A DNA stretch of 64,000 nucleotides from a virus (taxonomy: Duplodnaviria > Heunggongvirae > Uroviricota > Caudoviricetes): positions 1 through 64,000 of IMG/VR virus record IMGVR_UViG_3300021963_000042. One strand, given 5' to 3'. Numbering within the stretch: position 1 is the stretch's first letter; each line of letters begins with the position of its first letter. Positions 175 through 62,019 of this stretch are shown piece after piece. The notes under the pieces were generated by a model. That model saw only the letters and a list, made by a program, of their open reading frames with translations. It was not told where the DNA came from and did not search any database. A program made the position numbers and the translations under genes.

Positions 175-1182
175 TCATAAAATTAAGGGATCAACCTTTC
201 CAGTCTTCTCAACAACAGCCTTCTGAAATTTCCAAATCTTCTCACGCATCTCTACAGGTAAAGAGGCAAACTCATCCAGCTTTTCTTTTGTGTCTGCAGG
301 GAAAGCCCAACCCAAACCATCGTTACCTTTAGGTGCGCATACAGGAATACCAGCATAAAGAGCATGGTAAGCACGACCAGTTCTCCAGCCAGTCTTCTTA
401 TGTTTGTCATCATACACAGCCAGACAACCATGGAACTGCTGGTAGAATTTTCTACGATCTCTTTGTTGTGGATTTTCCAAAATCTCCAAAGCATCATAGT
501 CTGACCACTCAGCTTCTTTACCTGCGATTGCAAGACTTCGTGAAGAAGTAAACTCTTTGAAGTATTTGGTTCTGCCACTTGGACGACCAATGTAGATAAC
601 CTTAGGGATGCTACCAGCGTGAAACTCTGCGAACTCCATACCAGAAGCCATCGGCAAGTCGACTACAGTAACTCCGATAGGGCACTTCAAAACTTTATGA
701 ACCTCGTCACAGTTGGTTGCGTTTGCAGCAACAGTCCAACGTGACCAGTCTTCATCAGGCAGCAACTCCCACAGGAATGGAAGATCTGGATCATCGTTCA
801 AGAAGATGATGCGACCTTTGTGCGCTTTGATCATTTCAATAGTCTTGTCCCAATACTTCTGATAAAACTGTAGGTTAGTTCCACCGAACTCGAGCATAAG
901 CACATCACACTGCTGGTACGTATCAAAGGTTTCAAACCCATCGTCTTTAGTTGGGTCGGTTGCTTCTGATAGCGGAATGATTTGGTAACCAAAGTCAAGC
1001 ATGTTCTTGAACAGAGCAACACGTTTCTCAACCCATGCTCCACGAACACCATTCTCTTTATTGGTCAAACCGATCTTACCAGATACTCTGCGGTAACCAA
1101 CTTTACTTCCAGTGTTGGAAGAGTTCTTGGAATAAAACCACTCCAACATTCTTTCCTCACCTAAAAATTCATGTAAAGACAT
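175..1182 (-). CDS. DNA beta-glucosyltransferase-like glycosyltransferase (GT-B fold)
   Basis: 335 aa. By eye the C-terminal half aligns to T4 beta-gt (KVIYIGRPSGR vs DVIYGGSFRSGQR; ALYAGIPV vs AALIIGD). It sits at the T4 beta-gt/42 slot next to uvsX-41. Confidence 0.5.
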   Translation of the reverse strand: MSLHEFLGEERMLEWFYSKNSSNTGSKVGYRRVSGKIGLTNKENGVRGAWVEKRVALFKNMLDFGYQIIPLSEATDPTKDDGFETFDTYQQCDVLMLEFGGTNLQFYQKYWDKTIEMIKAHKGRIIFLNDDPDLPFLWELLPDEDWSRWTVAANATNCDEVHKVLKCPIGVTVVDLPMASGMEFAEFHAGSIPKVIYIGRPSGRTKYFKEFTSSRSLAIAGKEAEWSDYDALEILENPQQRDRRKFYQQFHGCLAVYDDKHKKTGWRTGRAYHALYAGIPVCAPKGNDGLGWAFPADTKEKLDEFASLPVEMREKIWKFQKAVVEKTGKVDPLIL

Positions 1183-1775
1183 TATAACTCCAAATTAGTC
1201 AACTTATTAACATCGCCAAGCGATCCACGATAAAACGAATTAAACGCCAAAGAAACTCTGGCTTCATTATTCTTATTGGTATTGACTCCGTGCAACATAT
1301 GTGATGGGAACAATACAATCATATTTTGTTTAACATTGATAGGCATGTGGTCAAGATTAAACTTAGTCTGCTTAGTTATCTTGGGTTTGATACCGTAAGA
1401 TTTATCCTTAAAGAAAATTATCTGACTCGGATCTTTACTAATATAAACTACTCCGCTGATGATACTATTGTCATGGCAGTGTGTATGATGTGATGTATTT
1501 TTATCGTTAAAGTTTATCCAAGACTGAGTAACCTCAAGAGTAACACCTTCTGCTCCAATGATATTGATTAGATATTCTTGGAGGTGTTTATTAACCTGCG
1601 CCTTCAAAGATGACAATTCAGGTTTATCCAAAACAAAATTATCATTAGATGTTGCATTACCATACACATTCGGGTAGGTTTCAGTTTTAATGCTCTGTAT
1701 ATAAGCAAGCTCGTGAAACTGAAACTCTACCGTTGATTGGTAAAGTGGCGTTGGAAATAAACCGAAGACGTTCAC
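1182..1775 (-). CDS. 2OG-Fe(II) oxygenase (TIGR02466/PF13759-like)
   Basis: 197 aa. HTHCHD...SGVVYI...HMLHGV...RVSLAFN, i.e. HxD/H/RxS double-stranded beta-helix motifs. Paralogue of 7033-7653, 20188-20859 and 57505-58155. Confidence 0.6.
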   Translation of the reverse strand: MNVFGLFPTPLYQSTVEFQFHELAYIQSIKTETYPNVYGNATSNDNFVLDKPELSSLKAQVNKHLQEYLINIIGAEGVTLEVTQSWINFNDKNTSHHTHCHDNSIISGVVYISKDPSQIIFFKDKSYGIKPKITKQTKFNLDHMPINVKQNMIVLFPSHMLHGVNTNKNNEARVSLAFNSFYRGSLGDVNKLTNLEL

Positions 1776-3070
1776 CCGAAGAAATCCTCAAGTGATGTTG
1801 ATTCTGCCTCAGGATGATATTTCAACAATTCACCACGACCAAGTTTTTGTTCGCAATAGTCATACCACTCTTGAGATTCCCACATTCCCTGAGAAACACC
1901 ATTCCACAGTGGACGTTGCTCTGGGTGTTCTTTATTCAGTCTACGAGACTCAACAAAGTCATAACGACAATCTTCATACTCTTTAGAACCCAACTCAAGC
2001 ATCTTCTCACGGAAGTATACCACCAAAGAAATACGCTCAGAACCTTCTTCGCAAACGATAGGAGTGTTACCGTGCATAACTTCGTGGTTGTTAATCAACA
2101 GCAAGTCACCTGGACGTGGGTTAACAGCAACACGATACTCAGGTGCAATCAAATAACCACCACTGTACTTGCCATCATTAGACAGAGTTAGAAGGTTAGA
2201 CAGACCATCATTCAAATCGCCAACGTCATAGTGAGCAGCAGTGCGGAATGTTTTGTTTACAGTAACCGTAGTGAATGGTGTCCCAGGAACCAAGAATCGT
2301 GCATCGATTTTACCAGCAGCTTCCATCTGAGCAGCATAACGCTTAGGTAAGAACTCTTTAAAACCACCAGCCAAAGATTGCAGGAACGGATATGCCATGG
2401 CAAACTTCTCAGGATACTTCGCAGTATAAGAAGTGGCACGACCATAAGGGATGCGAGGATAACGATCAAACCAACCAGCAATACCTGAATGAACAGAGTT
2501 TGCATATGTGGTCAAGCAGATTAAATCTTCAGCAACGTGAACTGCCTCTTGTTTAGCTTGGTCAGCTGGCAACTTACGTGCACGTTCAACCCACTCATCA
2601 AACTTGAAGTTCTCTTTCTTTACACGATCGATAGACCAAACACGTGCACGATTAGAGATCTCTGGTTTCTTACCAGCATACTTCTTGCGAATCTCATCAA
2701 TAGGATCTTCACCGAAAAGGTTTTCAGTTGGCTTCAAGAAGTAGTCAACGATATCATATTCATACTCGGTAACCCATTCACGATTACCCAGCTTCTCACC
2801 ACGTGGTCCTGCAGCAAGTCCACGATTCTGTGTTTCGGTTGCTGCTTCACGAAGACCTGCGTAGGCTTGTTCTTGTTGCTCTTTGCTAAAGTAGTTCTTA
2901 CGAAACTTCAGAACGATCCTATCTTCGCTGATTGGATCTTCGCCAAACTTCGGTGGCATATAAACATCACAATCTTCTTCAATAAGAAAGTCATAGTGAC
3001 TCTCATCAACGAACTGACCCAACAGATGTTGACAGTCATGTTTTCTATCAGCTACAATTACCTTTACCAT
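1772..3070 (-). CDS. 2OG-Fe(II) dioxygenase-domain protein with clamp-binding-like C-terminal tail
   Basis: 432 aa. C-terminal domain has AAHYDVGD (HxD), HEVMHGN (H) and ERISLVVYF (RxS). The last 7 aa SLEDFFG are identical to the gp43 C-terminus. The N-terminal ~260 aa are unassigned. Confidence 0.5.
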   Translation of the reverse strand: MVKVIVADRKHDCQHLLGQFVDESHYDFLIEEDCDVYMPPKFGEDPISEDRIVLKFRKNYFSKEQQEQAYAGLREAATETQNRGLAAGPRGEKLGNREWVTEYEYDIVDYFLKPTENLFGEDPIDEIRKKYAGKKPEISNRARVWSIDRVKKENFKFDEWVERARKLPADQAKQEAVHVAEDLICLTTYANSVHSGIAGWFDRYPRIPYGRATSYTAKYPEKFAMAYPFLQSLAGGFKEFLPKRYAAQMEAAGKIDARFLVPGTPFTTVTVNKTFRTAAHYDVGDLNDGLSNLLTLSNDGKYSGGYLIAPEYRVAVNPRPGDLLLINNHEVMHGNTPIVCEEGSERISLVVYFREKMLELGSKEYEDCRYDFVESRRLNKEHPEQRPLWNGVSQGMWESQEWYDYCEQKLGRGELLKYHPEAESTSLEDFFG

Positions 3071-3079
3071 ACATTTCTC

Positions 3080-4477
3080 CTAAAATTTGAAACCGCTAAA
3101 ACCTTCATCACTATGTATGCGTTTTCCAAAATCACTTTTATCAAACATCGGTCCTTCGTCTTTACTTCCAGAGTCAGCAAGAGTTTGGGCAGATGCTTCA
3201 ACATCATATAGTTTCATTTTAGCTCTGTCAACACCAATAACAAATCGCTTATAATAATTGGGATCATTATAACGATTCTTCAACTGCTTCACGATAATCT
3301 GATTCAGCTGTTCAAGTTCTTCGTTACTCACCAACGCAAACATAAAGTCTGCAGTCGCTGGTAAACCAAAAGATTCAGAAGTATCTTCCAGACCTGGATC
3401 TGAGTTTGTATAACCAGATCGGGTAGTTTGAGTTGCCGACATAATTGGAACATTACACTCAACAGCCAAACCACGAAGTTCTTCAGCGATTGCCTTAATA
3501 TATGTATAAGAGTTTACGCCATGCGTTTGTTTCATTCGAGAAGAAGCACAGATGTTCAGATAGTCAATAAAGATAATATCAGGAACGAACTCTCGCTTCA
3601 TCTTCAACTCTTCCAGCAGGGCACGGAAGTGACCAGCATGAGCAGACGCAGTTGGGTACTCTTTAACAATCAACTTACCTTGTGTCTTCTTAGCAATCTT
3701 TTCAAGACGAGAATCAAAGATGTCACGATCGACAACTTTCAATTCATCCATAGTCAAGTTAAGAAGGTTGGCGTCAATACGTTCAGCGATACGTTCTTCA
3801 GCCATCTCCATGGTGATGTAAAGAACATTCTTACCTTGCATCAGAACAGAAGCACCAACGTGACACATAAACAAAGACTTACCAACACCAGTACCAGCCA
3901 AAGCGATGTTCAAAGTTTTCTTTGATAGTCCACCTTTGGTAATTTTGTTGAACATATCAAGGTCGAAGCTGATCTTTTCTTCGACTCGATGATAAAATTC
4001 ATAACGAGACTCAGCATCCTCGAGATAATCATGGCCAACATGATTATCGAAAGAGACGGCAAGAGCGTCACTAAGGATGCTAGGAATTGCATCTTGCGTT
4101 CTGACTTTATCTCTACCGTCAATGATTTGGATCGAATGTAGAATCGCATTATAAACTGCCTTGTCTTTACAAAACTTTTCAGTGTTCTGAACTAACCACT
4201 CTTCATTACTTTCCTGATTAGTGAGTTGCTTAGCAAACTCTTGCATCTCGGGAACTTCTTTATCGGTAAACCCTTTTAGGTTTCCAATTTCAATCTGAAC
4301 AATCTCAGGACTAGCTGGTTTGTTGTATTGCTCGAAGAACTTAATTAACAAAGAGGCAATTGCTGCCTCTTTGCGATCTGTGAAGTATTCAGTCTTAAGG
4401 TGTGGTACAACCTTGCGACAATATTCTTCATTGTGGATCAGGTTCGATAGGATCGCCTGTTCTATTCTCATCAACAC
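3080..4477 (-). CDS. 41: replicative DNA helicase gp41 (DnaB-like)
   Basis: 465 aa. Walker A motif ALAGTGVGKS and a RecA-like core (IIFIDYL). Synteny uvsX-40-41. Confidence 0.85.
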   Translation of the reverse strand: MLMRIEQAILSNLIHNEEYCRKVVPHLKTEYFTDRKEAAIASLLIKFFEQYNKPASPEIVQIEIGNLKGFTDKEVPEMQEFAKQLTNQESNEEWLVQNTEKFCKDKAVYNAILHSIQIIDGRDKVRTQDAIPSILSDALAVSFDNHVGHDYLEDAESRYEFYHRVEEKISFDLDMFNKITKGGLSKKTLNIALAGTGVGKSLFMCHVGASVLMQGKNVLYITMEMAEERIAERIDANLLNLTMDELKVVDRDIFDSRLEKIAKKTQGKLIVKEYPTASAHAGHFRALLEELKMKREFVPDIIFIDYLNICASSRMKQTHGVNSYTYIKAIAEELRGLAVECNVPIMSATQTTRSGYTNSDPGLEDTSESFGLPATADFMFALVSNEELEQLNQIIVKQLKNRYNDPNYYKRFVIGVDRAKMKLYDVEASAQTLADSGSKDEGPMFDKSDFGKRIHSDEGFSGFKF

Positions 4478-4754
4478 CGCCTGTATATGTTAAACTATTT
4501 TTCTCAATACCTTCATGGATCAATTCAGTAAGAATGTCACCAATATAATTTTCAAAGGGTTTAACATCAGTTAAAACCTTATCGTTGTAGTCAAGGATTT
4601 CATACTCGAAGTGAATACCCAATTTATCATTGGCTTCATCTTCACTGAAAGAAACCTTTCCGTACACATAAATTATACCCGCAAATGGTTCTTCTGTCAA
4701 CTTTATCGCATCGAAGAAACCATTGCGGTGTTCAACAACTACGTAGGGTTTCAT
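4428..4754 (-). CDS. hypothetical protein (gene-40 position)
   Basis: 108-aa ORF between uvsX and 41. No recognisable motifs. Confidence 0.3.
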   Translation of the reverse strand: MKPYVVVEHRNGFFDAIKLTEEPFAGIIYVYGKVSFSEDEANDKLGIHFEYEILDYNDKVLTDVKPFENYIGDILTELIHEGIEKNSLTYTGGVDENRTGDPIEPDPQ

Positions 4755-5818
4755 TCGTAGTCAACTTCTGCAAGTTCTGCACTGATATCTTCATCACTCA
4801 AGATAGAATCAGTAGAAACCATATACTTGTTCTTGATGAAATCGTAGAAAGACTTTTGCGTCAACAAAGGCATCCAGAAATCTTTGCTATCTGTATCTTT
4901 GATACGCCACTTCTTTTCTTCCACAACACCAGTCTCAAGATCTACTTTCGAATACCAACCATTGCTAGGCTTGATAACATGTCCTGATTCGAGTGCAATA
5001 TCAAGTAGACCGCTCCACTTGCTGATACCACCATTAAAAGAAACAGCGACAGGGATTTTAGATTTTTCTTTAACATATCTTGATTTTTCTACGTTGATAA
5101 TGAAGTTATAACCGACTACTTCAGTACCTTCTTTTTCTTGTTGACGACCCAAGATAAAAATATTGTCAGCTGAGTAATAAGAGCCAGTACCACCACCAAC
5201 GATGTCTTTAGGATACAAACCAATTTCTTTGTAGGTGTGGTTAACAACTACCATTGGGATATCCTTCAGAGTCAGGTGAGGTGTGACCATACGGAATAGG
5301 GATTTCATCTGTTTAGCACGAGACATATCGGCAACAGATTTACCATCAAGTGCATCCTCAACTTCTTTCTTAGAAGCAAGGTTACCGATGGAGTCAATAA
5401 CAATCATCACTCGCTCGCCACGTTCAATGTTCTGCAGCTGTTGCATAATATCAAACTTGAGTTGTTCAACGTCTGTGATTGGAGTGTGAAGAACACGATC
5501 CGTATCAATACCGAAGCTATCGAAGTAACTCTGTGGCGTACCAAACTCAGAGTCATAAAATAGCAGAGCAGCATCTGGATACTTGTCCAGATAAGACTTT
5601 GCCATCAGCAAACTGAAAGCAGTCTTAAAGTGCTTTGATGGACCAGCCCACATTGTGAGTCCAGGAACCAAACCACCATCCAAGCGACCACTCAATGCTA
5701 CGTTGATGATAGGGATGCTAGTTGGAATCATATCCTTCTTAGCGAAGAACTTTGACTGCGCAAGAATAGCGGAATCTTTGATCGTGCTATTCTTTTTAAT
5801 TTTATCAAGAATACTCAT
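4751..5818 (-). CDS. uvsX: UvsX RecA-like recombinase
   Basis: 355 aa. GLTMWAGPSKHFKT Walker A motif on a RecA fold. T4-like position. Confidence 0.85.
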   Translation of the reverse strand: MSILDKIKKNSTIKDSAILAQSKFFAKKDMIPTSIPIINVALSGRLDGGLVPGLTMWAGPSKHFKTAFSLLMAKSYLDKYPDAALLFYDSEFGTPQSYFDSFGIDTDRVLHTPITDVEQLKFDIMQQLQNIERGERVMIVIDSIGNLASKKEVEDALDGKSVADMSRAKQMKSLFRMVTPHLTLKDIPMVVVNHTYKEIGLYPKDIVGGGTGSYYSADNIFILGRQQEKEGTEVVGYNFIINVEKSRYVKEKSKIPVAVSFNGGISKWSGLLDIALESGHVIKPSNGWYSKVDLETGVVEEKKWRIKDTDSKDFWMPLLTQKSFYDFIKNKYMVSTDSILSDEDISAELAEVDYE

Positions 5819-6208: not shown

Positions 6209-6460
6209 TCAAACATCCAAAAATTCAAGTAGTTGGGCTTCGTTCATCATACCAACCTTACGATTCTTTTCCGTATTATTTTCGTCAAGAAGAATCATGG
6301 TTGGGACGCCACGAACTCCATATTCCATAGCAACATTGCTATACTGGTCAATATCAATTTCCTCGATAGGAACTGTAATTTTGTCTGATGCGCCTTCAAT
6401 AACTTTAGAAAGCATTTTGCATGGACCACACCAGCTTGCAGAAAACTTTAGAACTTTCAT
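6209..6460 (-). CDS. thioredoxin
   Basis: 83 aa with a WCGPC active site. Confidence 0.75.
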   Translation of the reverse strand: MKVLKFSASWCGPCKMLSKVIEGASDKITVPIEEIDIDQYSNVAMEYGVRGVPTMILLDENNTEKNRKVGMMNEAQLLEFLDV

Positions 6461-6472
6461 TTTATACTCCTA

Positions 6473-7036
6473 TTATACACTATTTTGATTTATCTGTAAA
6501 TTTTTTGTTGGAACATCAAACACAAAAGTAATGCGAACGCAATCACCAATGTTGTCAGTTCCATGTTCAAGTTTATTGTTAAACCAGAGTAACGTCCCTG
6601 GCTCAACATCATAATGTTCATCGCCTACATAATATCTATACCTTCCCTGTATAGACAGATGATAACGATCTCTTGTTTGATAGTAGTCGCCAATATCAAT
6701 GTGTTTGCCAACCTTTCCACCAACAGGAAGTGACAAGAAACCGCAACGAGAAAACTTGCCAAAGTTTCTCTTCATAAACCCAATAACTTCTGTGTGATGT
6801 TTGCAAGCTGGAGTTGGAATGCAAATCTCTGTGTCTCCGACGTATTGATCAAGCGATTCTACGCCACCCATAACAAGTTGTAGAACACCTGCTTCTACTT
6901 CTGGGAAACCACGATCTAACATAGACATCGCACCATCAACCTGTCTCTGTGAACCCCAATCTTCTGGATGTGCTTGTAACTGTTTCAGTATCTTAGAAAC
7001 ATTCAATCCAGTTTTGATGATGCGTATATTCTTCAT
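6473..7036 (-). CDS. cupin / 2OG-Fe(II) oxygenase-like (Asp/Asn beta-hydroxylase-like)
   Basis: 187 aa. GKHIDIGDY (HxD), LEHGTDN (H) and RITFVFDV (R). Confidence 0.45.
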   Translation of the reverse strand: MKNIRIIKTGLNVSKILKQLQAHPEDWGSQRQVDGAMSMLDRGFPEVEAGVLQLVMGGVESLDQYVGDTEICIPTPACKHHTEVIGFMKRNFGKFSRCGFLSLPVGGKVGKHIDIGDYYQTRDRYHLSIQGRYRYYVGDEHYDVEPGTLLWFNNKLEHGTDNIGDCVRITFVFDVPTKNLQINQNSV

Positions 7037-7653
7037 TTAATGTTTACTATTGACATGTCGTTACCAAGTTCACCACGAAGGAACACATTGAAAGACAGCG
7101 AGTATCTGGTTTTATCTGATGTATTCGGTTCGACTTTATGTAGAATATGTGATGGGAAGATCAAAATATCATTATCATATGGGTAGTGTGCCCACGATGG
7201 CGAGTTAAACAAATTTAGGTTTGAATATTCTACACGGATAGCTGGTGGAAAGATATTTGATGGCGAACCAATATCAAACACAATCTCTCCTGTTGTTTCG
7301 TCTGTTTGAATATAAACGACGCCAGACAAAAGAGAATTGTCATGTCTATGTAGTTGAGCAGCATCACCCTTCTCATGTTTCACAACCCAAGAGTTAGTTA
7401 TGTAAAACTCAATGTGAGGTGCTACAGACAACCCATTATAAACATAACGATCGAGGGCAGACTTGATCTTCTGTTTTAAAGAAGCAAAGTCTTCTCTGTC
7501 CAATACAAACTTATCAGCAGAGTACTTCCCATCATATATCAAGGAAGTTACTCTACTCAACTCATCTGATGTGATGGGTTCAATCTTTGATTGATAGATT
7601 GGTGTAGAAAATAATGGGACGATGTTATCCAAAGAAGTCCTCCAGAGATGCAT
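7033..7653 (-). CDS. 2OG-Fe(II) oxygenase (TIGR02466-like paralogue)
   Basis: HRHDNS...SGVVYI...HILHKV...RYSLSFNV. Track ORF extends to 7731. Internal Met start chosen to match the paralogue N-terminus (LFSTPIYQS). Overlaps the 3' end of gene 43. Confidence 0.55.
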   Translation of the reverse strand: MHLWRTSLDNIVPLFSTPIYQSKIEPITSDELSRVTSLIYDGKYSADKFVLDREDFASLKQKIKSALDRYVYNGLSVAPHIEFYITNSWVVKHEKGDAAQLHRHDNSLLSGVVYIQTDETTGEIVFDIGSPSNIFPPAIRVEYSNLNLFNSPSWAHYPYDNDILIFPSHILHKVEPNTSDKTRYSLSFNVFLRGELGNDMSIVNIK

Positions 7654-10111
7654 GTTCTTCCACCTTCCAGCCCAGTGGTTGAATAACAGTTTGAAGCGCA
7701 TCAAGGAAAGTCTTTTCAAACTGCAACTCATAATCTATGTATTCTTCCAAACCAAACTCTTTCGGTAGCACTTGCGGGAATGCAATCACATCTTCATTGA
7801 ATGGGTTTGGCTTCTTCACATACACAAACTTAATCTTCTCACCCTCTTTAATCAGCTGATACTTCTTGTCAAGACCAAGACGTTTAACGTGGTGATTGAA
7901 CAACAAAGAACCACGAACGTGGATAGGTGTACCCTTACCATAGATTGGGGAACCAGCATACTGGCGTAAACCATTTACACCACGAGGGAATGCTATTTCT
8001 TGGACAGGTAACGAGTTGAATTCTGCACGAAACTTTTCAATGAAGGAATGTAGTTTCGCTTGATCTCCCTCGAGAATAACTTCGATCGAACTCTTAAGTT
8101 TGTCACGAATAACAGCAGGTGTACTCGACTTGACCATCTCCAAGCCCATAACTTTGAGTTTAGGTTTCGCATACTGCACTCCCTCAGAATTGTGCACGTT
8201 CAGAATATATCGTTTCTTGGCAGTCCAGATACCCTTGTCAGCCAGAACCTCTCGCTTCATCTGCATCTTCTGAGAATATGCATTCATGTAGTCAGCAAGT
8301 TCTTGATAGCCTTTGTCGATGAAAGGTTGGATAACATCCTCGCAGATTTTATCCATGGTCTTGATCTTCTGTTCAGTAGTCTTACCTTCACAGATCTTCT
8401 CAATCAAAGTTTCAAGAGTCAGATAAATTGAGTCGGTATCGATGGCGATAACGAAGTCTTTACCTTCTGTCTTCAGAGTTTTGTTGAGGAATGCATTCAG
8501 CTTGTTAGCCATCCAACGAATAGACAACTGACCAGAAGTGGTAATACCTTCAGCCATACGGATATCGAAGTAACGGAAGTACTGGTTACCCATCGCACCA
8601 TAAGCAGAGTTTAGCGCAATCTTCATAGCCATCTGCAGGTTGTTCAATCGGCTAATCTCCTTCAGCAAGTGCTTCTGAGACTTGTCGTTCTGATATTCCT
8701 GCTCGACTTTCAACATCTGCTTCTTGAATTTGCTTCGGTCGACATACATCTTTTCCATCAACTCAGGCATAAACCCTTTGATGTCTTTGCGATATGTCCA
8801 ACCATTCGCAGTAACAGTCAAGTCCCTGCGCTTAGCATATGATGTGTCAACTTCTTGGTTCAACAACTTATCGACAGTACAAGAAATCTTTTCGCTGTTC
8901 AAAGTCTCTGGAGAAATGTTATACTGCATAATCAAGTGAGGATACAGACTGTTCAAGTCGAAGGAAGCAACCCACTTGTGTTGACCAATGATCGGGTCTT
9001 TAACAAACGCACCTTCAAATTGTTCGTTCTTGCTGGAGCCACTCTTCATAGGAATAACGATGTTCTTCTTACGCAGGTGGTTATAGATGATAGCATCCCA
9101 CATGCGAACCTGAGAGAACACGTCTTCGTAGTTAATCTTGGCGTTATATGCCATGGTCAGACACAACTCAATCAGTCGCATCTTGTCTTCCAGTTTGTCA
9201 ACCAACTCTACGTCGTGAATGTTATATTCAACGAACTGTTGCCAGTGGTTGGTATAGAAGTCTTTGAAGGTATCTCCAGGATTTTCTTTCTTCGCATCAC
9301 CTAGTTCTTCGCCAGCGATGTAATCGAGACGATATGATTCTTGCTTGGTATAAGTGAACTTCTTATACAAGTCAAGATAGTCTAGTTGTGAGATACCGTG
9401 AATGTCGAAAGAGATTTCTTCATTACCTTGAATGAAGATCTTGCGTTCGTTGATATAACCCCATGGCGAAAGTTTCGTAGCGATGGTTTCACCCAACTCT
9501 CGTTGAATGCGTTTCACCAAATATGGGATATCGAAGAAGCCAATGTTCCAACCTGTGACAACATCTGGATAGTTCTGCGACCACCAGATAATAAACTCTT
9601 TCAGAAGATGTTGTTCGTCTTTACAGTGCATGTAAATGACATCATCACGATTGTGAACAAACGCACGTGAACCGAAAGTGATTACACGTTTAGATTGAAG
9701 ATCTTTAACAGTGATTAGGAGAACCTCTTCGTTCGCCGAACGGATGTCAGGGAAACCAGATTCAGTTGCAGTCTCAATGTCGATGGTGAAGACTTTAATA
9801 TGTTCCATATCCCAGCGAATGTCACTCTCATAAGTGTCGCTAAGATATTGGCAGATATAATTGGTGTTACCGTAGATGTTGAAACCAGACACGTTCTCGT
9901 ATTGCTTAACGAACTCACGTGTCTCTTTAACAGTTCCAGGCTTGACTTCATCAACGCACTGACCATCGAGTGTGCGCCAATTACTTTCCTTCTTAGAGGA
10001 ACAGTAAAGGGTTGGGAAGAAATCTATTTTACGATTGAAGGGTCGTCCATTATCATACCCTCGGACAAACATTTTGTTACCAAAGGGAAAGACGTGGGTG
10101 TAAAATTGCAT
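7625..10111 (-). CDS. 43: DNA polymerase gp43 (family B)
   Basis: 828 aa. Exo motifs, motif A DLNSLYPH and motif C AIDTDS. C-terminus ends SLEDFFG. Confidence 0.9.
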   Translation of the reverse strand: MQFYTHVFPFGNKMFVRGYDNGRPFNRKIDFFPTLYCSSKKESNWRTLDGQCVDEVKPGTVKETREFVKQYENVSGFNIYGNTNYICQYLSDTYESDIRWDMEHIKVFTIDIETATESGFPDIRSANEEVLLITVKDLQSKRVITFGSRAFVHNRDDVIYMHCKDEQHLLKEFIIWWSQNYPDVVTGWNIGFFDIPYLVKRIQRELGETIATKLSPWGYINERKIFIQGNEEISFDIHGISQLDYLDLYKKFTYTKQESYRLDYIAGEELGDAKKENPGDTFKDFYTNHWQQFVEYNIHDVELVDKLEDKMRLIELCLTMAYNAKINYEDVFSQVRMWDAIIYNHLRKKNIVIPMKSGSSKNEQFEGAFVKDPIIGQHKWVASFDLNSLYPHLIMQYNISPETLNSEKISCTVDKLLNQEVDTSYAKRRDLTVTANGWTYRKDIKGFMPELMEKMYVDRSKFKKQMLKVEQEYQNDKSQKHLLKEISRLNNLQMAMKIALNSAYGAMGNQYFRYFDIRMAEGITTSGQLSIRWMANKLNAFLNKTLKTEGKDFVIAIDTDSIYLTLETLIEKICEGKTTEQKIKTMDKICEDVIQPFIDKGYQELADYMNAYSQKMQMKREVLADKGIWTAKKRYILNVHNSEGVQYAKPKLKVMGLEMVKSSTPAVIRDKLKSSIEVILEGDQAKLHSFIEKFRAEFNSLPVQEIAFPRGVNGLRQYAGSPIYGKGTPIHVRGSLLFNHHVKRLGLDKKYQLIKEGEKIKFVYVKKPNPFNEDVIAFPQVLPKEFGLEEYIDYELQFEKTFLDALQTVIQPLGWKVEEHASLEDFFG

Positions 10112-17905: not shown

Positions 17906-18320
17906 GTTTTTTCCCGATATTATATTTAGGTACAAGTTCCCACTGGTCTTTCTCTTTGTAGGAAACCACTTTAATTTGAGATAGCGATGCTTTCTGTTCT
18001 GCTTTTGTTGCAACCAGAATCTTCAAGAGTTCCCAGTCTTGCAACAATGCAGCGATTGCATTGCGTCTCTCAATATCACCAGAAGTGATATTCGATTCTT
18101 TACCGTCCAAAGCAAATAGTTCTTTGAAGTGAACGATAAAGTACCTACCTTGCTTATGTAAAATATGGCAAGATTGGTAAAGTTTCTTTTCTTTTCTGGA
18201 AGCGATTCCGATGCGAGTAAGTGTCTCACGAACCTTCAGAAAGTTATCTGGTTCTGGTAGTGTCACTTCAAGCATGGACTCTGGTGTCCAGTCGTAGTAA
18301 ATCATTTCAACGCTCATCAT
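17895..18320 (-). CDS. regA: translational repressor RegA
   Basis: 141 aa. FLKVRETLTRIGIA...LYQSCHILHKQGRYFIVHFKEL...WELVPKYNIG aligns to T4 RegA. Confidence 0.8.
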   Translation of the reverse strand: MMSVEMIYYDWTPESMLEVTLPEPDNFLKVRETLTRIGIASRKEKKLYQSCHILHKQGRYFIVHFKELFALDGKESNITSGDIERRNAIAALLQDWELLKILVATKAEQKASLSQIKVVSYKEKDQWELVPKYNIGKKRND

Positions 18321-18694
18321 TTTCCACCTTTATATAGTTTTTCTTTTATCAGGTCAAGCTGGACATCAGACAAAACGCCTAGTGCCTGTTTTGCCTTCTC
18401 CATAGAATAACCATAGTATTCCATCACAAAAGATAATGAGTCAGTCTTAGCATCTTTCTTAGCCCATTTACTGAATCTTTTCTTACGTGGTATACTATTT
18501 AGCAAAAAGAAAAATTGCCACTCTTTAGGTATAGAATAATGACGATTCATTTCGTTCGCATACATCACAGTGTCTGGGAACTGAGATAAACCTTTATTCA
18601 CCATCCAAGGCTCGTAGTCTTTGTTAGCCTGTGGATCTTGAAATAGATTCTCCTTGGTATCGTTGATTGCATTAATAAAATCGAATGGGCTCAT
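18317..18694 (-). CDS. 62: clamp-loader subunit gp62 (short form)
   Basis: 125 aa. NKGLSQFPDT and IPRKKRFSKWAKK match T4 gp62 (ALSQFPEC, VPRGKRYGKWAKL). Confidence 0.55.
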   Translation of the reverse strand: MSPFDFINAINDTKENLFQDPQANKDYEPWMVNKGLSQFPDTVMYANEMNRHYSIPKEWQFFFLLNSIPRKKRFSKWAKKDAKTDSLSFVMEYYGYSMEKAKQALGVLSDVQLDLIKEKLYKGGK

Positions 18695-19215: not shown

Positions 19216-20169
19216 TCACTTAAATTTGCAGTTTGCCATAATCTCAGTCAAAGCTGCCATGATATTTATCTCTTGGTCAGCCACGAATGCTGCTTTATAT
19301 TGATAGTCTGCAAGAATAAGAACCATCTGAGGGATGCTTGCTGGTTCCATATTTGTAGTTGCATTATCATACAACTCACGGAACAATGGAGCAGTACCCA
19401 ACTCTGAGTTCTTAGCAACCCATGAGCGCACTTCCTTGAAGTTCTTTTCCTTCAAGTCACGTACAAGTTGCTTGTAAGATTCTTGGCTGGTGTTAACCAG
19501 AATGCCAGAATCAATCTTACCCGAGACAGAATAACGCTGCAGTTCGTTCAGAACACGACGATAGTCAGGGAAGTGTTTGATGATGAGTTCTGAAACTACC
19601 TTGGGATCAAACTCAACATTTTCGTTCTTGAGAATTTGCATAGCACGTTTCATAAACGTACCAGCAATTTCCTGCTTGTCTTTAGTATCAATCTTAAACT
19701 CTACAACAGCGCATCGGCTATGCAGAGGCTCAATGATTCGATTCTTGAAGTTACAAGTAAAGATAAAACGACAGTTATTGGAGAACTGCTCAATCATAGA
19801 ACGCAACGCTGGTTGCACAGAATCAGCATTCATATAATCTGCCTCATCAATAATGATGATCTTTGGAGCATCACTTAGAGAAACAGTAGAAGCAAAGTTC
19901 TTTACGGTAGTTCGAAGAGTGTCGATGTGACGACCTTCGTCCGATCCGTTAATCATAATGTAGTCAGCACCAACTTCGTTACATAGTGCTTTAGCAACAG
20001 TAGTCTTACCTACACCAGCTGTTCCGCAAAACAGAAATGTAGGCAACTCACCTTTAGCGATATACTCTTTAAATGTGTTCTTCAAAGACTCAGGCAGAAC
20101 ACATTCATCAATAGTCTGTGGGCGATACTTCTCGACCCACAGAAACTGCTCATCACGAGATTCAATCAT
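19216..20169 (-). CDS. 44: clamp-loader ATPase gp44 (AAA+)
   Basis: 317 aa. GTAGVGKTT, IIIIDEAD and an SRC motif. Confidence 0.85.
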   Translation of the reverse strand: MIESRDEQFLWVEKYRPQTIDECVLPESLKNTFKEYIAKGELPTFLFCGTAGVGKTTVAKALCNEVGADYIMINGSDEGRHIDTLRTTVKNFASTVSLSDAPKIIIIDEADYMNADSVQPALRSMIEQFSNNCRFIFTCNFKNRIIEPLHSRCAVVEFKIDTKDKQEIAGTFMKRAMQILKNENVEFDPKVVSELIIKHFPDYRRVLNELQRYSVSGKIDSGILVNTSQESYKQLVRDLKEKNFKEVRSWVAKNSELGTAPLFRELYDNATTNMEPASIPQMVLILADYQYKAAFVADQEINIMAALTEIMANCKFK

Positions 20170-20187: not shown

Positions 20188-20859
20188 TTACGTCTTATTA
20201 AAATTCTTATTATTTGGGAACAATGTGGTAGTGTCTTTAATTGCAAAATTAAAAGTCATACACATTCTATCTTCCTGAGACAGATTCTTTGTGACAAAAT
20301 GCATCAAGCTCCCTGGGAAAATCAACATCAAATTTTCTTTAGCATCAATTTGATGGAATACCTCAGTGAACCTGTTACGATCAACAAAGTATTTTGGGGC
20401 ATAGTTCCAGCATCTTGTATTATCGCCATGCTGGAAAACAATGTTACCAGAATCAGGTGGAACCTTAAAATAATATACAGCTACAATCGTGGTGCCAGGA
20501 TGCACATGTGAGAACACGACATCGTCTGGTCCATTAATGTTATACCAGCAGCCATTCAAAACTAAGCTACAAGATTCTTTAGCTCCAAGTTCTCGAATGC
20601 ATTGGCTGGCATTTTCTGTAGCAAGCGCAACAATCTTTTCTAATGCAGAATTAGATTTAATCTGCGCTTTAGACAGTAAGTAGCTAATCCACTTTAGACC
20701 AGCAGACCTAGCCTCACCAATATAATTGTTTGGGTTTCGGTTTGCTGTGTCAATTTCATACAGGGAGTTTGCATGATCAACCAGTCTGGCAGTATCGACA
20801 TCATCAATATCGAAAGACCAAACTGGTGTGACAAACAAGTCAACCCTGTTCATAATCAA
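20188..20859 (-). CDS. 2OG-Fe(II) oxygenase-like (TIGR02466-like paralogue)
   Basis: 223 aa. LFVTPVWSF N-terminus as in the paralogues. HVHPG...VAVYYF...LMHFV...RMCMTFNF. Confidence 0.5.
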   Translation of the reverse strand: MIMNRVDLFVTPVWSFDIDDVDTARLVDHANSLYEIDTANRNPNNYIGEARSAGLKWISYLLSKAQIKSNSALEKIVALATENASQCIRELGAKESCSLVLNGCWYNINGPDDVVFSHVHPGTTIVAVYYFKVPPDSGNIVFQHGDNTRCWNYAPKYFVDRNRFTEVFHQIDAKENLMLIFPGSLMHFVTKNLSQEDRMCMTFNFAIKDTTTLFPNNKNFNKT

Positions 20860-21515
20860 CCTTCGAAGGTTGAGTCAGCTTCTACTGCGACGTAATAAAC
20901 CAAATCGCCAGTGCCTTTGAAACGAGAGATTTTCTTAGAAGAAATGCTAACGTCATAATCGCCAGGAAGCATCTTCAGGTTTTCAACTTTCAAATTGATC
21001 TTGAAAGTTTTATCGGTAGTACCGACAGCTTCACGGAACACGTTAGCCGTGGTGTTCTTCTTGTCACCAACAACAGCAGTGATAGAAGAACCATCGCCAA
21101 CGATAGACAAGTCTTCAGAACGAAGAACGCCAGCAGTCTTACGGATCATGTCCAACTGATCGCTGGACAGTTTGAATTCAATCTCATGCGCTGGGAATGT
21201 GATTGCTTTTTGCGGTGCGACCAAAACTTCAGGTGCTGCAGCGAAGTATTTGATGCTGCGACCACCACTCTTAATGGTGACGTACTTGTCGTTAAATTCC
21301 AACTCGGGATCGTCAAACAGAGACATCGCACCCAAAAATTCATTCAGGTCATAGATACCAAAGTCTGCAGGGAAAGTTTCCCCAACGACAGTGTCAGCCA
21401 TCACGTTCTTTTGTGAAGAGATGGTTGCGAGTTTGTTACCTTGTTTCAAAAGCAAATTGCTGTTGATGCCAGCAAAGTTCTTAATAACGGTAACTGTTTC
21501 TTTAGATAGTTTCAT
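20856..21515 (-). CDS. 45: sliding clamp gp45
   Basis: 219 aa. MKLSKETVTVIKNFAGINS... aligns along its length to T4 gp45. Confidence 0.9.
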   Translation of the reverse strand: MKLSKETVTVIKNFAGINSNLLLKQGNKLATISSQKNVMADTVVGETFPADFGIYDLNEFLGAMSLFDDPELEFNDKYVTIKSGGRSIKYFAAAPEVLVAPQKAITFPAHEIEFKLSSDQLDMIRKTAGVLRSEDLSIVGDGSSITAVVGDKKNTTANVFREAVGTTDKTFKINLKVENLKMLPGDYDVSISSKKISRFKGTGDLVYYVAVEADSTFEG

Positions 21516-59266: not shown

Positions 59267-60214
59267 TTAGTGTAACTGAATCTTCTGAACCAAACCTGGA
59301 GTGAAGTAGTCAGCAAACTTCTCATATACTTTAGAAGTAACAGCTTTGAACTTGCTTTCTTCTTCAGCAGACATCTTAACAACTTCAACACCCTTTGCTT
59401 CACACTCAGCCAAAATCTCTGGAATGTTAGCAACAGATTCACGACGCTCTTTGCGAGCAGCGTTGAAAGCAGCAGTAGCCATGATCTCTTGAGTTTCAGC
59501 GTCAAACTGTTTCATGAAGTCTTGGTTAACGATGATAGAAGTCAAGAACAAGCTATGAGCAGTGTCGTTAACAACTTTGAAAGATTCGTTCTGGTTTAGT
59601 GGGAAAATACGTACGTATGTAGATTCACCAGCAGAGATAACACCAGCGTCAGCTGCTTCGTTCATTTCTTCAAGAGCGATGTCCTTGTTTGGAACTGCGC
59701 CAAGAAGTTTGAAAGTCTCAACAGCAACTGGGCTGCGAGAAGTGCGAACAGATTGACCTTCCCAAGCTGCAACAGTGTCAGCACGGAAGTTTGCTGGAAC
59801 TACACGGTAGCCACCAGAGTAAGTGAAAGACATAGCCTTGATATTGCTATTCTTAGAAACGCCAGCTAGCAACTCAGTACCAATCTCGCCTTCTAGAACA
59901 CGATCAGCATGGGCGTGATCTTGGAACAAGAAAGGAAGGTCTAGAGCGTGTAGGTCTTGATTATAGTCAGCCAACCAAGTAGTATAGATGTGGCTCATTT
60001 CGATAGCACCAGAATCAACCAACTGCATTAGTTCATTCTTAGTGATTTTCTTACCATCATTATACTTTGCAGAGTAGTCAGACAAAGAAAGAACTTCGAT
60101 GTCGAACATACCACCAGTTTGCTCATTTACTTCTTTAGAGAAGGACTCGGCTACTTTCAAAAATAGACCGATAGGCTCGTGGGCAATAACCCATTTAACA
60201 TGCTTCTTTTGCAT
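59267..60214 (-). CDS. DctP-type (TRAP) solute-binding protein homologue, no signal peptide
   Basis: 315 aa. KWVIAHEP, LDLPFLFQDHAHADRVLEGEIGTELL, YSGGYRV (conserved Arg) and GQSVRTSRSPVAVETFKLLGAVP align to DctP/SiaP. Confidence 0.7.
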   Translation of the reverse strand: MQKKHVKWVIAHEPIGLFLKVAESFSKEVNEQTGGMFDIEVLSLSDYSAKYNDGKKITKNELMQLVDSGAIEMSHIYTTWLADYNQDLHALDLPFLFQDHAHADRVLEGEIGTELLAGVSKNSNIKAMSFTYSGGYRVVPANFRADTVAAWEGQSVRTSRSPVAVETFKLLGAVPNKDIALEEMNEAADAGVISAGESTYVRIFPLNQNESFKVVNDTAHSLFLTSIIVNQDFMKQFDAETQEIMATAAFNAARKERRESVANIPEILAECEAKGVEVVKMSAEEESKFKAVTSKVYEKFADYFTPGLVQKIQLH

Positions 60215-60555: not shown

Positions 60556-62019
60556 TTATTTAGGTTCTACTGGAACTTGGACTACTGGAATATTCAAAGG
60601 TTTGCGGACTTTCCAACTCTTTTTTCCAGTCTTCATATATTCGTTGTCGATTACCTGAATGCTAGTAACACCATCGAAACGAATTCGATCACCTTTAATC
60701 TCTGTCAAAACCAGACCATCAGTCATCTTGAATAGAGCAGCGCTCAACATCGCTAGGTTATACCAGAATAGGTTTTCGCAAGCCTGCTCCCAGTATTGAT
60801 CTTCTAAGAACAAACAAGCACCCTGACATAACTGTACAACTGGACAAGAAGGGCATTCTTTACGAGTAGACCAATGATAAGAGTTCGTTAGACGAATGTT
60901 ATCAAAATCTTCGATGTTTCCAATATTATGCTTGGTTAAGGAAGAAGTATTCTGACACGTAGTAACATTACCCTTCATATCGATGGCAATATTGTCTTCC
61001 TTATCCATACCACACTTTTGACCAACAGCTTCAGCTGGACGACCATAGACGATAGACTCAAAGAATGACTTGACCTTCTGATAGATAGTCCAACTAAATT
61101 GGTTCTTATTATCGATGGTTTCTTCAAATAAAGTATGAAGGATTTCTTTCTTCTCGTCTGTGGTTTGGAGAGAGTGAGTCATACCAGAGTCATCATATGG
61201 CAACATTAATTCTTCTGTAGTAACTTGAATTTCACGCTGGTCGACTCCAGGATTTTCAAATCCGACGTGTTTCTTATTGAGTTTATCCATAATAAAATTA
61301 CGGACAGAAGGAATAGAAACATTCTCACGTGTAAGAACACAGTTGAAAGTGAAACGTGTCAACCCCATAGTTTTCATAGCATAAACAACAGCGTCTTTTG
61401 CTACAGGTTCATCTAATGGATCTGGTCCACGATTCTGCGCATGCAGTGGTCCATCATGAGACATACCGATAGAAAACCCCATACGATTAAACCAATCAAC
61501 TTTTTCTCTAGTTAAAAGAGAACCATTGGTAACCATCATGAAACTAGCATTAGGGTAAACCTTCTTGATCTTTTCAGCAAGAGGTTTCAGTGTTTTCCAG
61601 TAAACCATCGGCTCACCACCCCAAAACTCAAGACGGAATTTATCATATGTTCCAAAGTTGAAATTCTCTTTCATCTTTTGGATCAATTCTTCCGCATCTT
61701 CTGGACCACCTACTGGGTCGTGTGGTTGGTGCGCTTGGTTACAGTAAGAGCATGCGTAGTTACACTTAAGACCCATCGTGATCTTAAGCGTAGTTGGCTT
61801 ACGGGATTTCTTACCGTGGAGTGCAGGATCGTGTGGGTTTGTAATATTTGCAGGTTCCCACACCTTTGCATTCATTTGATATTGAAGACCCTTACTCACA
61901 TGCTCGAGCGAGGGTCTTTCGTGCGTTTCTTCCCAATACATTTCAGATGTCATTGGGTCGTAAACCATATTAACTTTCACATCATTAGCCCCTTGTAGGA
62001 CTAGCGTAAATTTGCTCAT
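60556..62019 (-). CDS. radical SAM enzyme with C-terminal SPASM domain
   Basis: 487 aa. CNYACSYC (CX3CX2C) and C-terminal CPSCPVVQLCQGAC (CX2CX5CX3C). Confidence 0.7.
   Translation of the reverse strand: MSKFTLVLQGANDVKVNMVYDPMTSEMYWEETHERPSLEHVSKGLQYQMNAKVWEPANITNPHDPALHGKKSRKPTTLKITMGLKCNYACSYCNQAHQPHDPVGGPEDAEELIQKMKENFNFGTYDKFRLEFWGGEPMVYWKTLKPLAEKIKKVYPNASFMMVTNGSLLTREKVDWFNRMGFSIGMSHDGPLHAQNRGPDPLDEPVAKDAVVYAMKTMGLTRFTFNCVLTRENVSIPSVRNFIMDKLNKKHVGFENPGVDQREIQVTTEELMLPYDDSGMTHSLQTTDEKKEILHTLFEETIDNKNQFSWTIYQKVKSFFESIVYGRPAEAVGQKCGMDKEDNIAIDMKGNVTTCQNTSSLTKHNIGNIEDFDNIRLTNSYHWSTRKECPSCPVVQLCQGACLFLEDQYWEQACENLFWYNLAMLSAALFKMTDGLVLTEIKGDRIRFDGVTSIQVIDNEYMKTGKKSWKVRKPLNIPVVQVPVEPK

Follow-up and report, generated by a model that had tools for sequence, protein, structure and literature searches.

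In T4, hydroxymethylcytosine (hmC) is made at the nucleotide level before replication by the dCMP hydroxymethylase of gene 42 and is glucosylated by alpha- and beta-glucosyltransferases. In the base J pathway of kinetoplastids, thymine is oxidized to 5-hydroxymethyluracil (5hmU) in DNA by JBP1 and JBP2, and 5hmU is then O-glycosylated by the glycosyltransferase JGT. The post-replicative combination of a TET/JBP dioxygenase with a glycosyltransferase has already been described in phages in recent work, and clusters of 5-methylpyrimidine dioxygenases (5mYOX) and glycosyltransferases have been characterized experimentally (PMC8256090; bioRxiv 10.1101/2023.12.21.572611; PMC13229309). In the clade A and B clusters of Burke et al. 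(2021), the dioxygenase adjoins a co-evolving C5-methyltransferase and acts on 5mC. Phage enzymes without such a neighbour are T-dioxygenases, which have associated glycosyltransferases and fall into ParB-dependent and ParB-independent subclasses, and oxidation of T by the ParB-associated short 5mYOX has been shown experimentally (O'Toole et al. 2026; PMC13229309). Surveys have also found gp45 or clamp genes near some 5mYOX clusters and no methyltransferase on most 5mYOX contigs (PMC8256090; bioRxiv 10.1101/2023.12.21.572611), and for some phage TET/JBP clades, tests in E. coli revealed activity neither on T nor on 5mC (PMC8256090). The rationale of post-replicative modification has been called 'a mystery' (PMC13229309). 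Here we describe a locus of this type in a T4-like, Kyanoviridae-related phage, in which the new part is a dioxygenase with a polymerase-like, candidate clamp-binding tail.

The window, that is, the whole stretch of DNA analysed, comprises 64,000 nucleotides; about 74 kb of sequence was inspected in all, and the whole genome is probably larger than 150 kb. The features discussed are listed in Table 1; the sliding clamp gp45 and the clamp loader genes (gp44 and gp62-like) are all encoded within the window.

Table 1. Features of the modification locus and of the replication genes referred to in the text
Feature	Position	Strand	Basis or remark
TET/JBP-family (5mYOX) Fe(II)/2OG dioxygenase, 432 aa	1772..3070	-	Pfam Tet_JBP PF12851
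Candidate gp45 clamp-interaction heptapeptide SLEDFFG, dioxygenase C-terminus	1775..1795	-	Identical to polymerase C-terminus
Small 2OG-Fe(II) oxygenase, 197 aa	1182..1775	-	PF13759 / TIGR02466
Putative DNA 5-hydroxymethylpyrimidine glycosyltransferase, GT-B, 335 aa	175..1182	-	Fold nearest T4 DNA beta-glucosyltransferase
149-aa ORF (MIVSYDIDGVLAEQPPP...), first 59 codons	1..178	-	ORF map; leaves window at left edge
gp43 DNA polymerase, tail ...ASLEDFFG	7625..10111	-	tblastn with T4 gp43, E=8e-144
gp45 sliding clamp, proposed tail docking partner	20856..21515	-	T4 gp45 tblastn E=1.6e-24, 31% identity, full length
gp41 replicative helicase	3080..4477	-	DNA 71-77% identical to gp41 genes of cyanophages
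gp44	19216-20169		Identified by position and translation only
gp62-like clamp-loader subunit	18317-18694		Pfam

The three minus-strand genes that the sequence-only reading had delimited at 175-3070 are present, including the Tet_JBP and PF13759 members, but the module continues to the left of 175 with a fourth coupled ORF. The dioxygenase gene directly follows gene 41, as that reading had it, with an AGGAG in the 9-nt gap before its ATG. Because the four genes abut or overlap (junctions GTGA, TAATG and ATGA, the last joining the transferase stop to the start of the 149-aa ORF), the dioxygenase, the small oxygenase, the transferase and the 149-aa ORF appear to be translationally coupled. The module is probably co-transcribed with the gp41 gene. 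A perfect TTGACA-17-TATAAT stands on the minus strand at 4700-4672, and promoter-like sites overall are not above chance.

The T4 gene order 43-imm-42-beta-gt-uvsX-40-41 had been quoted correctly, and no gene 42 homologue is found in the window (best tblastn E=3.2). However, the idea that the module replaces the T4 beta-gt/42 slot does not hold as to position, as in T4 this slot lies between 43 and uvsX, whereas the module is found downstream, past gene 41. The interval from 43 to uvsX here contains a further PF13759 oxygenase together with a cupin and a thioredoxin, and the site after gene 41 holds MazG in S-PM2.

The 432-aa protein belongs to the TET/JBP family by sequence and fold, and its catalytic residues are intact. 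It matches PF12851 over residues 224-355 (E=1.1e-23; bit score 83.7, gathering threshold 34.9), and it is built from an N-terminal domain of ~190 aa, a DSBH core whose fold is nearer to TET-type than to AlkB- or P4H-type oxygenases, a C-terminal helical extension and a flexible tail. The predicted ligands H279-x-D281, H332 and R345 are invariant in alignments of 30 and 38 sequences with 32-86% identity. The clusters of Burke et al. (2021) and of the bioRxiv study likewise consist of a TET/JBP dioxygenase followed by a GT-B enzyme with a T4 BGT-like model, for post-replicative hydroxylation and then glycosylation. In contrast to theirs, the dioxygenase here is long (~430 aa) and has both an additional N-terminal domain and the polymerase-like tail, neither of which is mentioned in PMC8256090 or bioRxiv 10.1101/2023.12.21.572611. 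Compared by architecture, it also differs in its N-terminal domain and C-terminal extension from the enzymes of O'Toole et al. (2026), which have ~270-300 aa.

The clamp-like tail that had been noticed on the dioxygenase proved to be real. Among all window ORFs of at least 50 aa, only the dioxygenase (...STSLEDFFG) and the gp43 polymerase (...HASLEDFFG) end in SLEDFFG; T4 gp43 ends in ...ASLDFLFG. The C-terminal peptide of gp43 is an established gp45-binding element in T4 and RB69, and T4 gp33 and gp55 also carry C-terminal gp45-binding peptides. Like these, the dioxygenase tail is a short peptide of acidic and hydrophobic character, (S/T)L(D/E)xFF(G/A), placed at the very end of the protein; the known carriers are polymerase and transcription factors, whereas the candidate carrier here is a base-modifying dioxygenase. 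A C-terminus of the form L-[ED]-x-F-F-(G/A/V) occurs in 117 of 120 close dioxygenase homologues and in most full-length representatives of the 50% clusters, and the tail is conserved across relatives of 40-100% identity. In the related loci, 109 of 2,942 ORFs end in the motif (66 TET, 27 polymerases, a single spurious antisense ORF that occurs 13 times, and 3 further ORFs), so that a TET or a polymerase accounts for 93 of the 96 non-spurious cases.

Among relatives, the dioxygenase tail co-varies with that of the cognate gp43. The TET and polymerase tails are SLESFFG and SLESFFA in locus L027, SLEAFF and SLENFF in L039, where the final G is missing in both, and ATLGDFFV and ATLDSFFA in DLP6. 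Because five of the seven codons of the heptapeptide differ synonymously between the dioxygenase and polymerase copies, the shared tail is a product of selection and not of recent copying. In the predicted structure of the dioxygenase, pLDDT drops to 50-61 across the last ~20 residues. The tail is absent from the short TETs of non-T4-like contigs, from a few homologues (Cr30, L068 and L056) and from the 335-aa transferase. The conservation of the motif and its co-variation with the tail of the polymerase point to the dioxygenase being tethered on the gp45 clamp, an arrangement that we found described in no paper and to which the PIP-box tethering of DNMT1 to PCNA would be a conceptual parallel.

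The 335-aa transferase is a GT-B enzyme of a previously unnamed sequence family. Its two-Rossmann fold is most similar to T4 BGT (CAZy GT63), the best structural match by 5 Z-units over any other GT-B; the next neighbours are Gtf3/GtfC and PimA, which glycosylate proteins and lipids. The description of the enzyme as T4 beta-gt-like is borne out in structure but not in sequence, as the likeness is at the fold level only: a profile of 42 sequences shows no detectable homology to the T4 b-gt sequence (hhalign probability 5%), T4 b-gt gives E=6.7 by tblastn on the window, and no glycosyltransferase-family Pfam match is obtained at E<=0.1. By eye and global alignment, the invariant D130-D131-P-D133 loop, which follows strand 124-129, lies alongside T4 'LFTD100IRLPF', 'VIYIGRPSGR' resembles T4 'VIYGGSFRSGQR', and R270 falls at T4 R269; we propose that the loop may be the equivalent of T4 BGT Asp100. 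No cultured phage was found to carry the transferase, which has no tblastn match among 50,697 phage records. We regard it as a putative DNA 5-hydroxymethylpyrimidine glycosyltransferase, although it might act on an acceptor other than DNA.

The transferase is closely linked to TET/JBP genes. In 77 of 80 related metagenomic (IMG/VR) loci, a TET/JBP gene lies within ~2 kb of it; in 71 of these loci, in two T4-like genomic contexts, the TET gene is directly upstream, and in the other six the cassette reads ParB / transferase / 148-aa / short-Tet_JBP. The TET/JBP genes that the transferase adjoins belong to two subfamilies that differ greatly, and the adjacency occurs in three genomic contexts. 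In other T4-like relatives the TET-transferase pair stands between gp46 and gp45, and the pair behaves as a movable cassette. The 149-aa ORF, of which a complete copy is present in an identical ENA contig (L090, 11005-11454), is a constant partner of the transferase, a difference from the clusters of Burke et al. (2021) and the bioRxiv study. It lies directly downstream in ~73 related loci, a figure that corresponds to 73 tblastn matches with the ORF and includes the window and loci L004 and L005. Searches with its sequence in Pfam, NCBIfam and the PDB gave no match, and it may carry a HAD-like DxDGV motif. Sugar chemistry repeatedly accompanies the dioxygenase, because in C48C1 the tailed enzyme is followed by a 344-aa unknown ORF and a UDP-galactopyranose mutase, and a GT-A-like gene lies in its vicinity in DLP6 and Cr30.

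Neither in the window nor in the T4-like loci does the module have a ParB-like ORF beside it. Genes that resemble ParB_N, with a weak Pfam match (E=0.015), are confined to the non-T4-like cassettes L055, L058, L059, L062 and L067; in L078 and L079, still weaker ParB-like matches lie upstream of the short TETs. As the pair of transferase and 148- or 149-aa ORF is common to both versions, the gp45-tail and ParB versions suggest that a single targeting problem can be solved by either of two DNA clamps, one interchangeable with the other. Both dioxygenases would rely on a DNA-encircling accessory factor, and the covalent gp43-like peptide that is present here instead of a ParB gene would imply the use of gp45.

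The 197-aa oxygenase (PF13759, E=1.6e-18; TIGR02466, 62.6 bits) had been counted as part of the module, which the comparison does not bear out. Because it stands between TET and transferase in only 3 of 71 loci (L007-L009, the closest relatives), it is probably a lineage-specific insertion or passenger. Two paralogues are encoded elsewhere in the window, at 7033-7731 (34% identity) and 20188-20859 (23% identity).

The substrate base had been left as thymine or 5mC, and the gene content favours thymine, converted to 5hmU and glycosyl-5hmU, over 5mC. As far as the search extended, it found neither a gene 42 homologue nor a gene for a C5-methyltransferase or an enzyme of the thymidylate synthase family: the Pfam scan of 26 further window ORFs contained no thymidylate synthase or DNA methylase, precomputed Pfam matches of the genes up to 10 kb past the left edge contained neither family, and no Dcm-like or gp42/ThyA-like gene was detected in 1.05 Mb (the window and 85 loci; tblastn E<=0.1, phmmer E<=0.01) with single seeds, E. 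coli Dcm and T4 gp42, which may miss divergent enzymes. A C5-methyltransferase, dCMP methylase or hydroxymethylase could be encoded elsewhere in the genome. A dCMP deaminase and a dUTPase lie nearby in the relative L004, indicating a normal dTTP supply. Thymine is further favoured because the transferase family also occurs with the ParB-associated short 5mYOX, the class that oxidizes T.

Because the architecture is that of the characterized phage clusters of 5mYOX and glycosyltransferase, hydroxylation followed by glycosylation on replicated DNA, as the sequence-only reading suggested, is the best reading of this conserved pair, the chemistry being predicted. What we infer of the substrate base, clamp binding, sugar and biological role would fit together as follows. 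With Fe(II), 2-oxoglutarate and O2, the 432-aa dioxygenase would add a hydroxyl to the thymine 5-methyl group in phage DNA to give 5hmU. SLEDFFG would mimic the gp45-binding tail of the polymerase and bring the enzyme to its substrate by docking on clamps that are loaded at phage replication forks or remain behind them, so that modification would be coupled to replication and would select phage DNA. In the next step, the GT-B enzyme, together with its 149-aa partner, would transfer a sugar from a nucleotide sugar, with UDP-glucose as the default guess, to the new hydroxyl, and the base-J-like glycosyl-5hmU might act as a shield against host nucleases. The proposed chemistry equals that of base J, but JGT is GT-A-like, and targeting there depends on the J-binding domain of JBP1 and the SNF2 domain of JBP2 instead of a clamp-binding peptide. 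T4 shares the replication module and a final GT-B enzyme of the BGT fold; unlike in T4, hydroxylation would take place on the polymer. We lean somewhat towards this post-replicative cassette, with a clamp-tethered thymine oxidase, a sugar-adding transferase and the small oxygenase as a passenger. That tethering to gp45 by a polymerase-mimicking peptide constitutes a third mode of steering 5-methylpyrimidine dioxygenases, beside the stand-alone and ParB-activated modes, and couples modification to replication on phage DNA only, we consider an evenly balanced proposition.

Other explanations bear on separate parts of this scheme. The tail might serve as a signal for degradation or localization, or be left over from recombination with the polymerase gene, and the dioxygenase might find DNA by itself. 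Phage T-dioxygenases of the stand-alone kind are known (PMC13229309), and the motif is missing from a few homologues. We consider this explanation unlikely, as the motif sits at the extreme C-terminus like that of T4 gp43, persists from 40 to 100% identity including the 50%-cluster representatives, follows the cognate polymerase tail with different codons, is essentially limited to polymerase and TET among the ORFs surveyed and is not present in the TETs of non-T4-like contigs. The base might instead be cytosine, if a C5-methyltransferase or a 5-methyl-dCTP pathway elsewhere in the genome provided 5mC, which the dioxygenase would convert to 5hmC and the transferase to glycosyl-5hmC, as in phage TET clades A and B. 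In the known systems, however, the C5-methyltransferase lies beside the TET gene, and none was detected in the window, in the 10 kb beyond it or around 85 copies of the module; nor was a dCMP-modifying gene of the thymidylate synthase family found in the window or these loci, and the ParB-type enzymes that share the transferase family are T-dioxygenases (PMC13229309). The cytosine route therefore seems quite unlikely.

The dioxygenase could also be a replisome-associated enzyme that yields no glycosylated base, with 5hmU or 5fU as the end product or with a role in repair or regulation, and the GT-B enzyme and its partner could act on proteins, components of the cell envelope or small molecules. 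The transferase has no more than its fold in common with T4 BGT, its next structural neighbours act on proteins and lipids, it lacks a clamp tail, and its partner matches no Pfam, NCBIfam or PDB entry, all of which would suit such an acceptor. Yet the transferase almost always adjoins, and appears translationally coupled to, TET/JBP genes of two subfamilies in three contexts; T4 BGT has a clear lead among its structural matches; and sugar genes recur near the dioxygenase in C48C1, DLP6 and Cr30. This alternative therefore seems quite unlikely.

How a dioxygenase finds and covers phage DNA would, for T4-like phages, have a concrete and testable answer in the clamp-binding tail, and, if the proposal is true, the tethered dioxygenase would be the viral equivalent of DNMT1 bound to PCNA. 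The new sequence family with the T4 BGT fold, together with its obligate 149-aa partner, provides candidate tools for labelling 5hmU or 5hmC. The dioxygenase family comprises 2,757 metagenomic homologues at 90% clustering and about 25-30 full-length clusters at 50%, and it is missing from nearly all cultured phages; because of this imbalance, a widespread DNA modification may go unnoticed, and if so, sequencing, restriction mapping and studies of defence evasion could be affected. The homologues in DLP6 and Cr30 bear the label 'SNF2 DNA repair protein', which looks like a carry-over from JBP2 annotation.

The window, in which almost every gene lies on the minus strand, is part of a T4-like phage genome, and the best match available for gene 41 is to copies in marine Synechococcus myoviruses (71-77% DNA identity). 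The local order runs from gp43 through a PF13759 2OG oxygenase, a cupin, a thioredoxin and a 133-aa ORF to UvsX, a 108-aa ORF and gp41, and on to the 432-aa TET/JBP (5mYOX) dioxygenase, a small PF13759 oxygenase and the 335-aa GT-B transferase. At the module junctions, AGGAG and a gap of 9 nt are followed by overlaps of GTGA, TAATG and ATGA; therefore, the module genes appear to be translationally coupled. The final overlap (ATGA) belongs to a fourth ORF, which starts at 178 and leaves the window at its left edge. Promoter and terminator scans gave counts no higher than chance, and no T4 late-promoter motif (TATAAATA) was found near the module. A perfect sigma-70 consensus (TTGACA, 17 nt, TATAAT) lies within the 108-aa ORF. 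It may serve gp41 and the module as an early promoter, the total of promoter-like sites being no higher than chance.

Coordinates of the module, its neighbours and related features (window positions unless a locus is named; L numbers are related loci, L090 being an ENA contig identical to this phage)
Feature	Position	Strand	Remark
149-aa partner (MIVSYDIDGVLAEQPPP...)	1-178 (partial); L090:11005-11454 (full)	- (window)	coupled to transferase stop
Transferase	175-1182	-	
Small PF13759 oxygenase	1182-1775	-	
Dioxygenase	1772-3070	-	
gp41	3080-4477	-	directly upstream of dioxygenase
Sigma-70 consensus	4672-4700	-	upstream of gp41
UvsX	4751-5818	-	adjoined by 108-aa ORF, gp41 next
Thioredoxin	6209-6460	-	43-uvsX interval
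Cupin/Asp-Arg-hydroxylase-like protein	6473-7036	-	43-uvsX interval
PF13759 2OG oxygenase	7033-7731	-	43-uvsX interval
gp43 polymerase	7625-10111	-	
PF13759 2OG oxygenase	20188-20859	-	between gp45 and gp44; assigned by similarity to 7033-7731 copy
DctP-type protein	59267-60214	-	
Radical-SAM protein	60556-62019	-	
124-aa ORF	63226-63600	-	
233-aa HExxH protein	L090:11464-12165		
177-aa form of partner	L021:4189-4722		
ParB-type cassette (example)	L059:856-3629		
GT-A-like/DNMK sites	L004:11505-13018; L001:8562-9368; L002:5-730		
C48C1 dioxygenase region	L003 (OQ984149):5938-9385		

The sequence-only reading had described these genes correctly and had interpreted them as a module for hydroxylation followed by glycosylation of DNA, which our analysis supports in part, with thymine as the favoured base. 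Its proposal that the module replaces the T4 42/beta-gt slot fails on position, as the module follows gene 41 here and lies elsewhere in other relatives. In T4, imm, 42 and beta-gt lie between 43 and uvsX, whereas that interval is filled here by other genes, the PF13759 oxygenase, the cupin and the thioredoxin; the position after gene 41 is occupied by MazG in S-PM2 but by the dioxygenase and transferase in this phage.

The dioxygenase scored 83.7 bits against Pfam Tet_JBP (cutoff 34.9), and its H279-x-D281, H332 and R345 are invariant in homologues as distant as 32% identity. Its family forms 2,757 clusters at 90% identity (1,621 at 50%) in metagenomes; among 50,697 deposited phage genomes, the long form was found in DLP6, Cr30, C48C1 and S-CBWM1 only, under the probably mistaken label 'SNF2 DNA repair protein'. 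In some long forms (for example, P0175, P0192, P0205, L004, L026 and L054), the N-terminal domain is interrupted by a Cys-rich stretch (C..C....C..C) at columns ~60-90 of alignment A2; this insertion is missing from the window dioxygenase and may be a zinc-binding module. Three homologues of ~1,050-1,150 aa (P0276, P0288 and P0334) combine an N-terminal region homologous to dioxygenase residues ~55-410 with ~700 further residues.

The dioxygenase and gp43 are the sole ORFs in the window that end in SLEDFFG, where T4 gp43 ends in SLDFLFG. The C-terminal peptide of the T4 and RB69 polymerases is an established clamp-binding element, which occupies an interdomain pocket of gp45. The motif ends 117 of 120 close dioxygenase homologues and most full-length representatives of the 50% clusters, and is missing where phages of other types encode TETs of ~300 aa. 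It also follows the cognate polymerase, as seen in L027 (TET SLESFFG, polymerase SLESFFA), L039 (SLEAFF, SLENFF) and DLP6 (ATLGDFFV, ATLDSFFA); no polymerase tail was found in the Cr30 region searched. Across the related loci, 109 of 2,942 ORFs bear the motif, including 93 TETs or polymerases and 13 copies of one antisense artefact. The tail might have been a recent DNA copy of the polymerase 3' end, but this is ruled out by the tail codons of the two window genes, five of seven of which differ synonymously; therefore, the identity of SLEDFFG has been kept at the protein level. Confidence in the dioxygenase model falls across the last ~20 residues, as expected of a flexible tail, and clamp machinery is present in the window (gp45 and a gp62-like subunit confirmed, gp44 assigned by position and translation). 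On the simplest reading of these sequences, the dioxygenase would dock on gp45 via its tail, and we found no published description of gp45 docking by such a dioxygenase. The thioredoxin C-terminus (..LLEFLDV) was rejected as another clamp tail, being the ordinary C-terminal helix of thioredoxins.

The transferase had no match in Pfam, PHROGs or NCBIfam, nor by tblastn in the 50,697 phage genomes, and hhalign of a profile of 42 homologues against the T4 beta-glucosyltransferase (BGT) sequence gave no alignment (match probability 5%). Its AF2 model has a GT-B fold (pLDDT 93.6), and T4 BGT ranked first in both of the structural comparisons made with it (in Foldseek, E=4e-9 and TM 0.69, versus 0.52 for the next family). 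Therefore, the earlier description of a T4 BGT-like enzyme holds for the fold and not for the sequence, and the transferase is tied to T4 BGT by structure only. In a pairwise alignment, its invariant DDPD loop falls on the segment of the T4 catalytic Asp100, and an Arg-rich Gly loop and R270 fall on UDP-binding residues; this mapping is suggestive but not proven.

Among 80 IMG/VR loci encoding a transferase relative, 71 have a long TET/JBP gene ending a few bases upstream of it, in two unrelated T4-like contexts: pol-UvsX-gp41-TET-GT, as in the window, and gp47-gp46-...-TET-GT-...-gp45-gp44. The small PF13759 oxygenase, which had been read as a second enzyme of the module, is interposed in just 3 of these 71 loci, the three closest relatives, and two paralogues of it lie at other positions in the window; it is thus rejected as a pathway step and is probably a passenger. 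Six further loci, which are not T4-like, carry a cassette of a ParB_N-like gene, the transferase, a 148-aa ORF and a short Tet_JBP protein; of the remaining three, two end at the relevant edge and one is without a dioxygenase. The cassette as observed in L055, L058, L059, L062 and L067, where the ParB_N-like gene encodes 200 aa and the short Tet_JBP protein has 268 aa (Pfam E=4e-8), resembles the published ParB-dependent class of thymine dioxygenases.

The 148/149-aa ORF downstream of the transferase is its constant partner in ~73 related loci. Profile searches of Pfam, NCBIfam and PDB placed it in no known family, and a DxDGV motif is the sole basis for a tentative 'HAD-like' label. In L021, the partner is lengthened to 177 aa and ends in a clamp-tail-like ...GGTLSDFF, a single case that hints that it may also act at the clamp. 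Just past the left edge of the window, the partner is followed by a protein of 233 aa that contains HExxH (as MHELIH), an arrangement found in 23 loci, all of the gp41 context. In the gp46/47-gp45 context, the module is accompanied by a GT-A-like protein of 281 aa, which matches Anp1 weakly, and in four loci its gene comes with a dNMP kinase (DNMK); DLP6 and Cr30 have the GT-A-like gene near the dioxygenase and are both without the GT-B enzyme. The main text of the DLP6 paper makes no mention of a methyltransferase or hydroxymethylase. In the Kyanoviridae phage C48C1, a tailed dioxygenase (...SLEEFFV) is followed by an ORF of 344 aa and then by one for UDP-galactopyranose mutase (E=6e-52 to Pfam GLF), which suggests a galactofuranose-type DNA modification.

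As to the base, published 5mC-type phage TETs adjoin their C5-methyltransferase and those without one are thymine dioxygenases (PMC8256090; PMC13229309). As the sequence-only reading had stated, the window has no gene 42 homologue (best tblastn E=3.2), and neither thymidylate synthase nor ThyX nor a DNA methylase came up when 26 further window ORFs were scanned with Pfam. A screen with single seeds, E. coli Dcm for C5-methyltransferases and T4 gp42 for the thymidylate-synthase family, gave zero matches in 1.05 Mb (the window and 85 related neighbourhoods), and no such gene was among the precomputed Pfam matches recorded for called genes in the 10 kb past the left edge. Moreover, the transferase family also occurs with ParB-type short 5mYOX enzymes, for which thymine oxidation has been demonstrated experimentally (PMC13229309). 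Therefore, within the 74 kb of this genome searched (the 64-kb window plus 10 kb) and by a single-seed screen, conversion of thymine to 5hmU and then to glycosyl-5hmU is the favoured route. We place the complete model, clamp-tethered thymine oxidation followed by glycosylation, at a little better than even; we are more confident of a DNA hydroxylation and glycosylation module and of clamp binding, and less so of which base and which sugar are involved.

The module belongs to an already described type of pathway, in which a phage 5mYOX acts with a GT-B or GT-A glycosyltransferase on probable 5hmU substrates. Compared with published reports, the new elements would be a subfamily of long, putatively clamp-tailed dioxygenases that is typical of T4-like phages, a family of transferases that share the predicted fold of T4 BGT and no sequence similarity with it, the obligate 149-aa partner, and the occurrence of the transferase and partner pair in both gp45-tail and ParB contexts.

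Elsewhere in the window, the phage genes have among them one for a solute-binding protein of a DctP-type TRAP transporter (Pfam E=8.5e-42). Near the gene for a radical-SAM protein, which matches Pfam Radical_SAM and Fer4_12, is an ORF of 124 aa that ends in a Cys/Asn repeat (...CNCNCNCACNCNCNCACNC), and the two could be a phage peptide-maturation pair.
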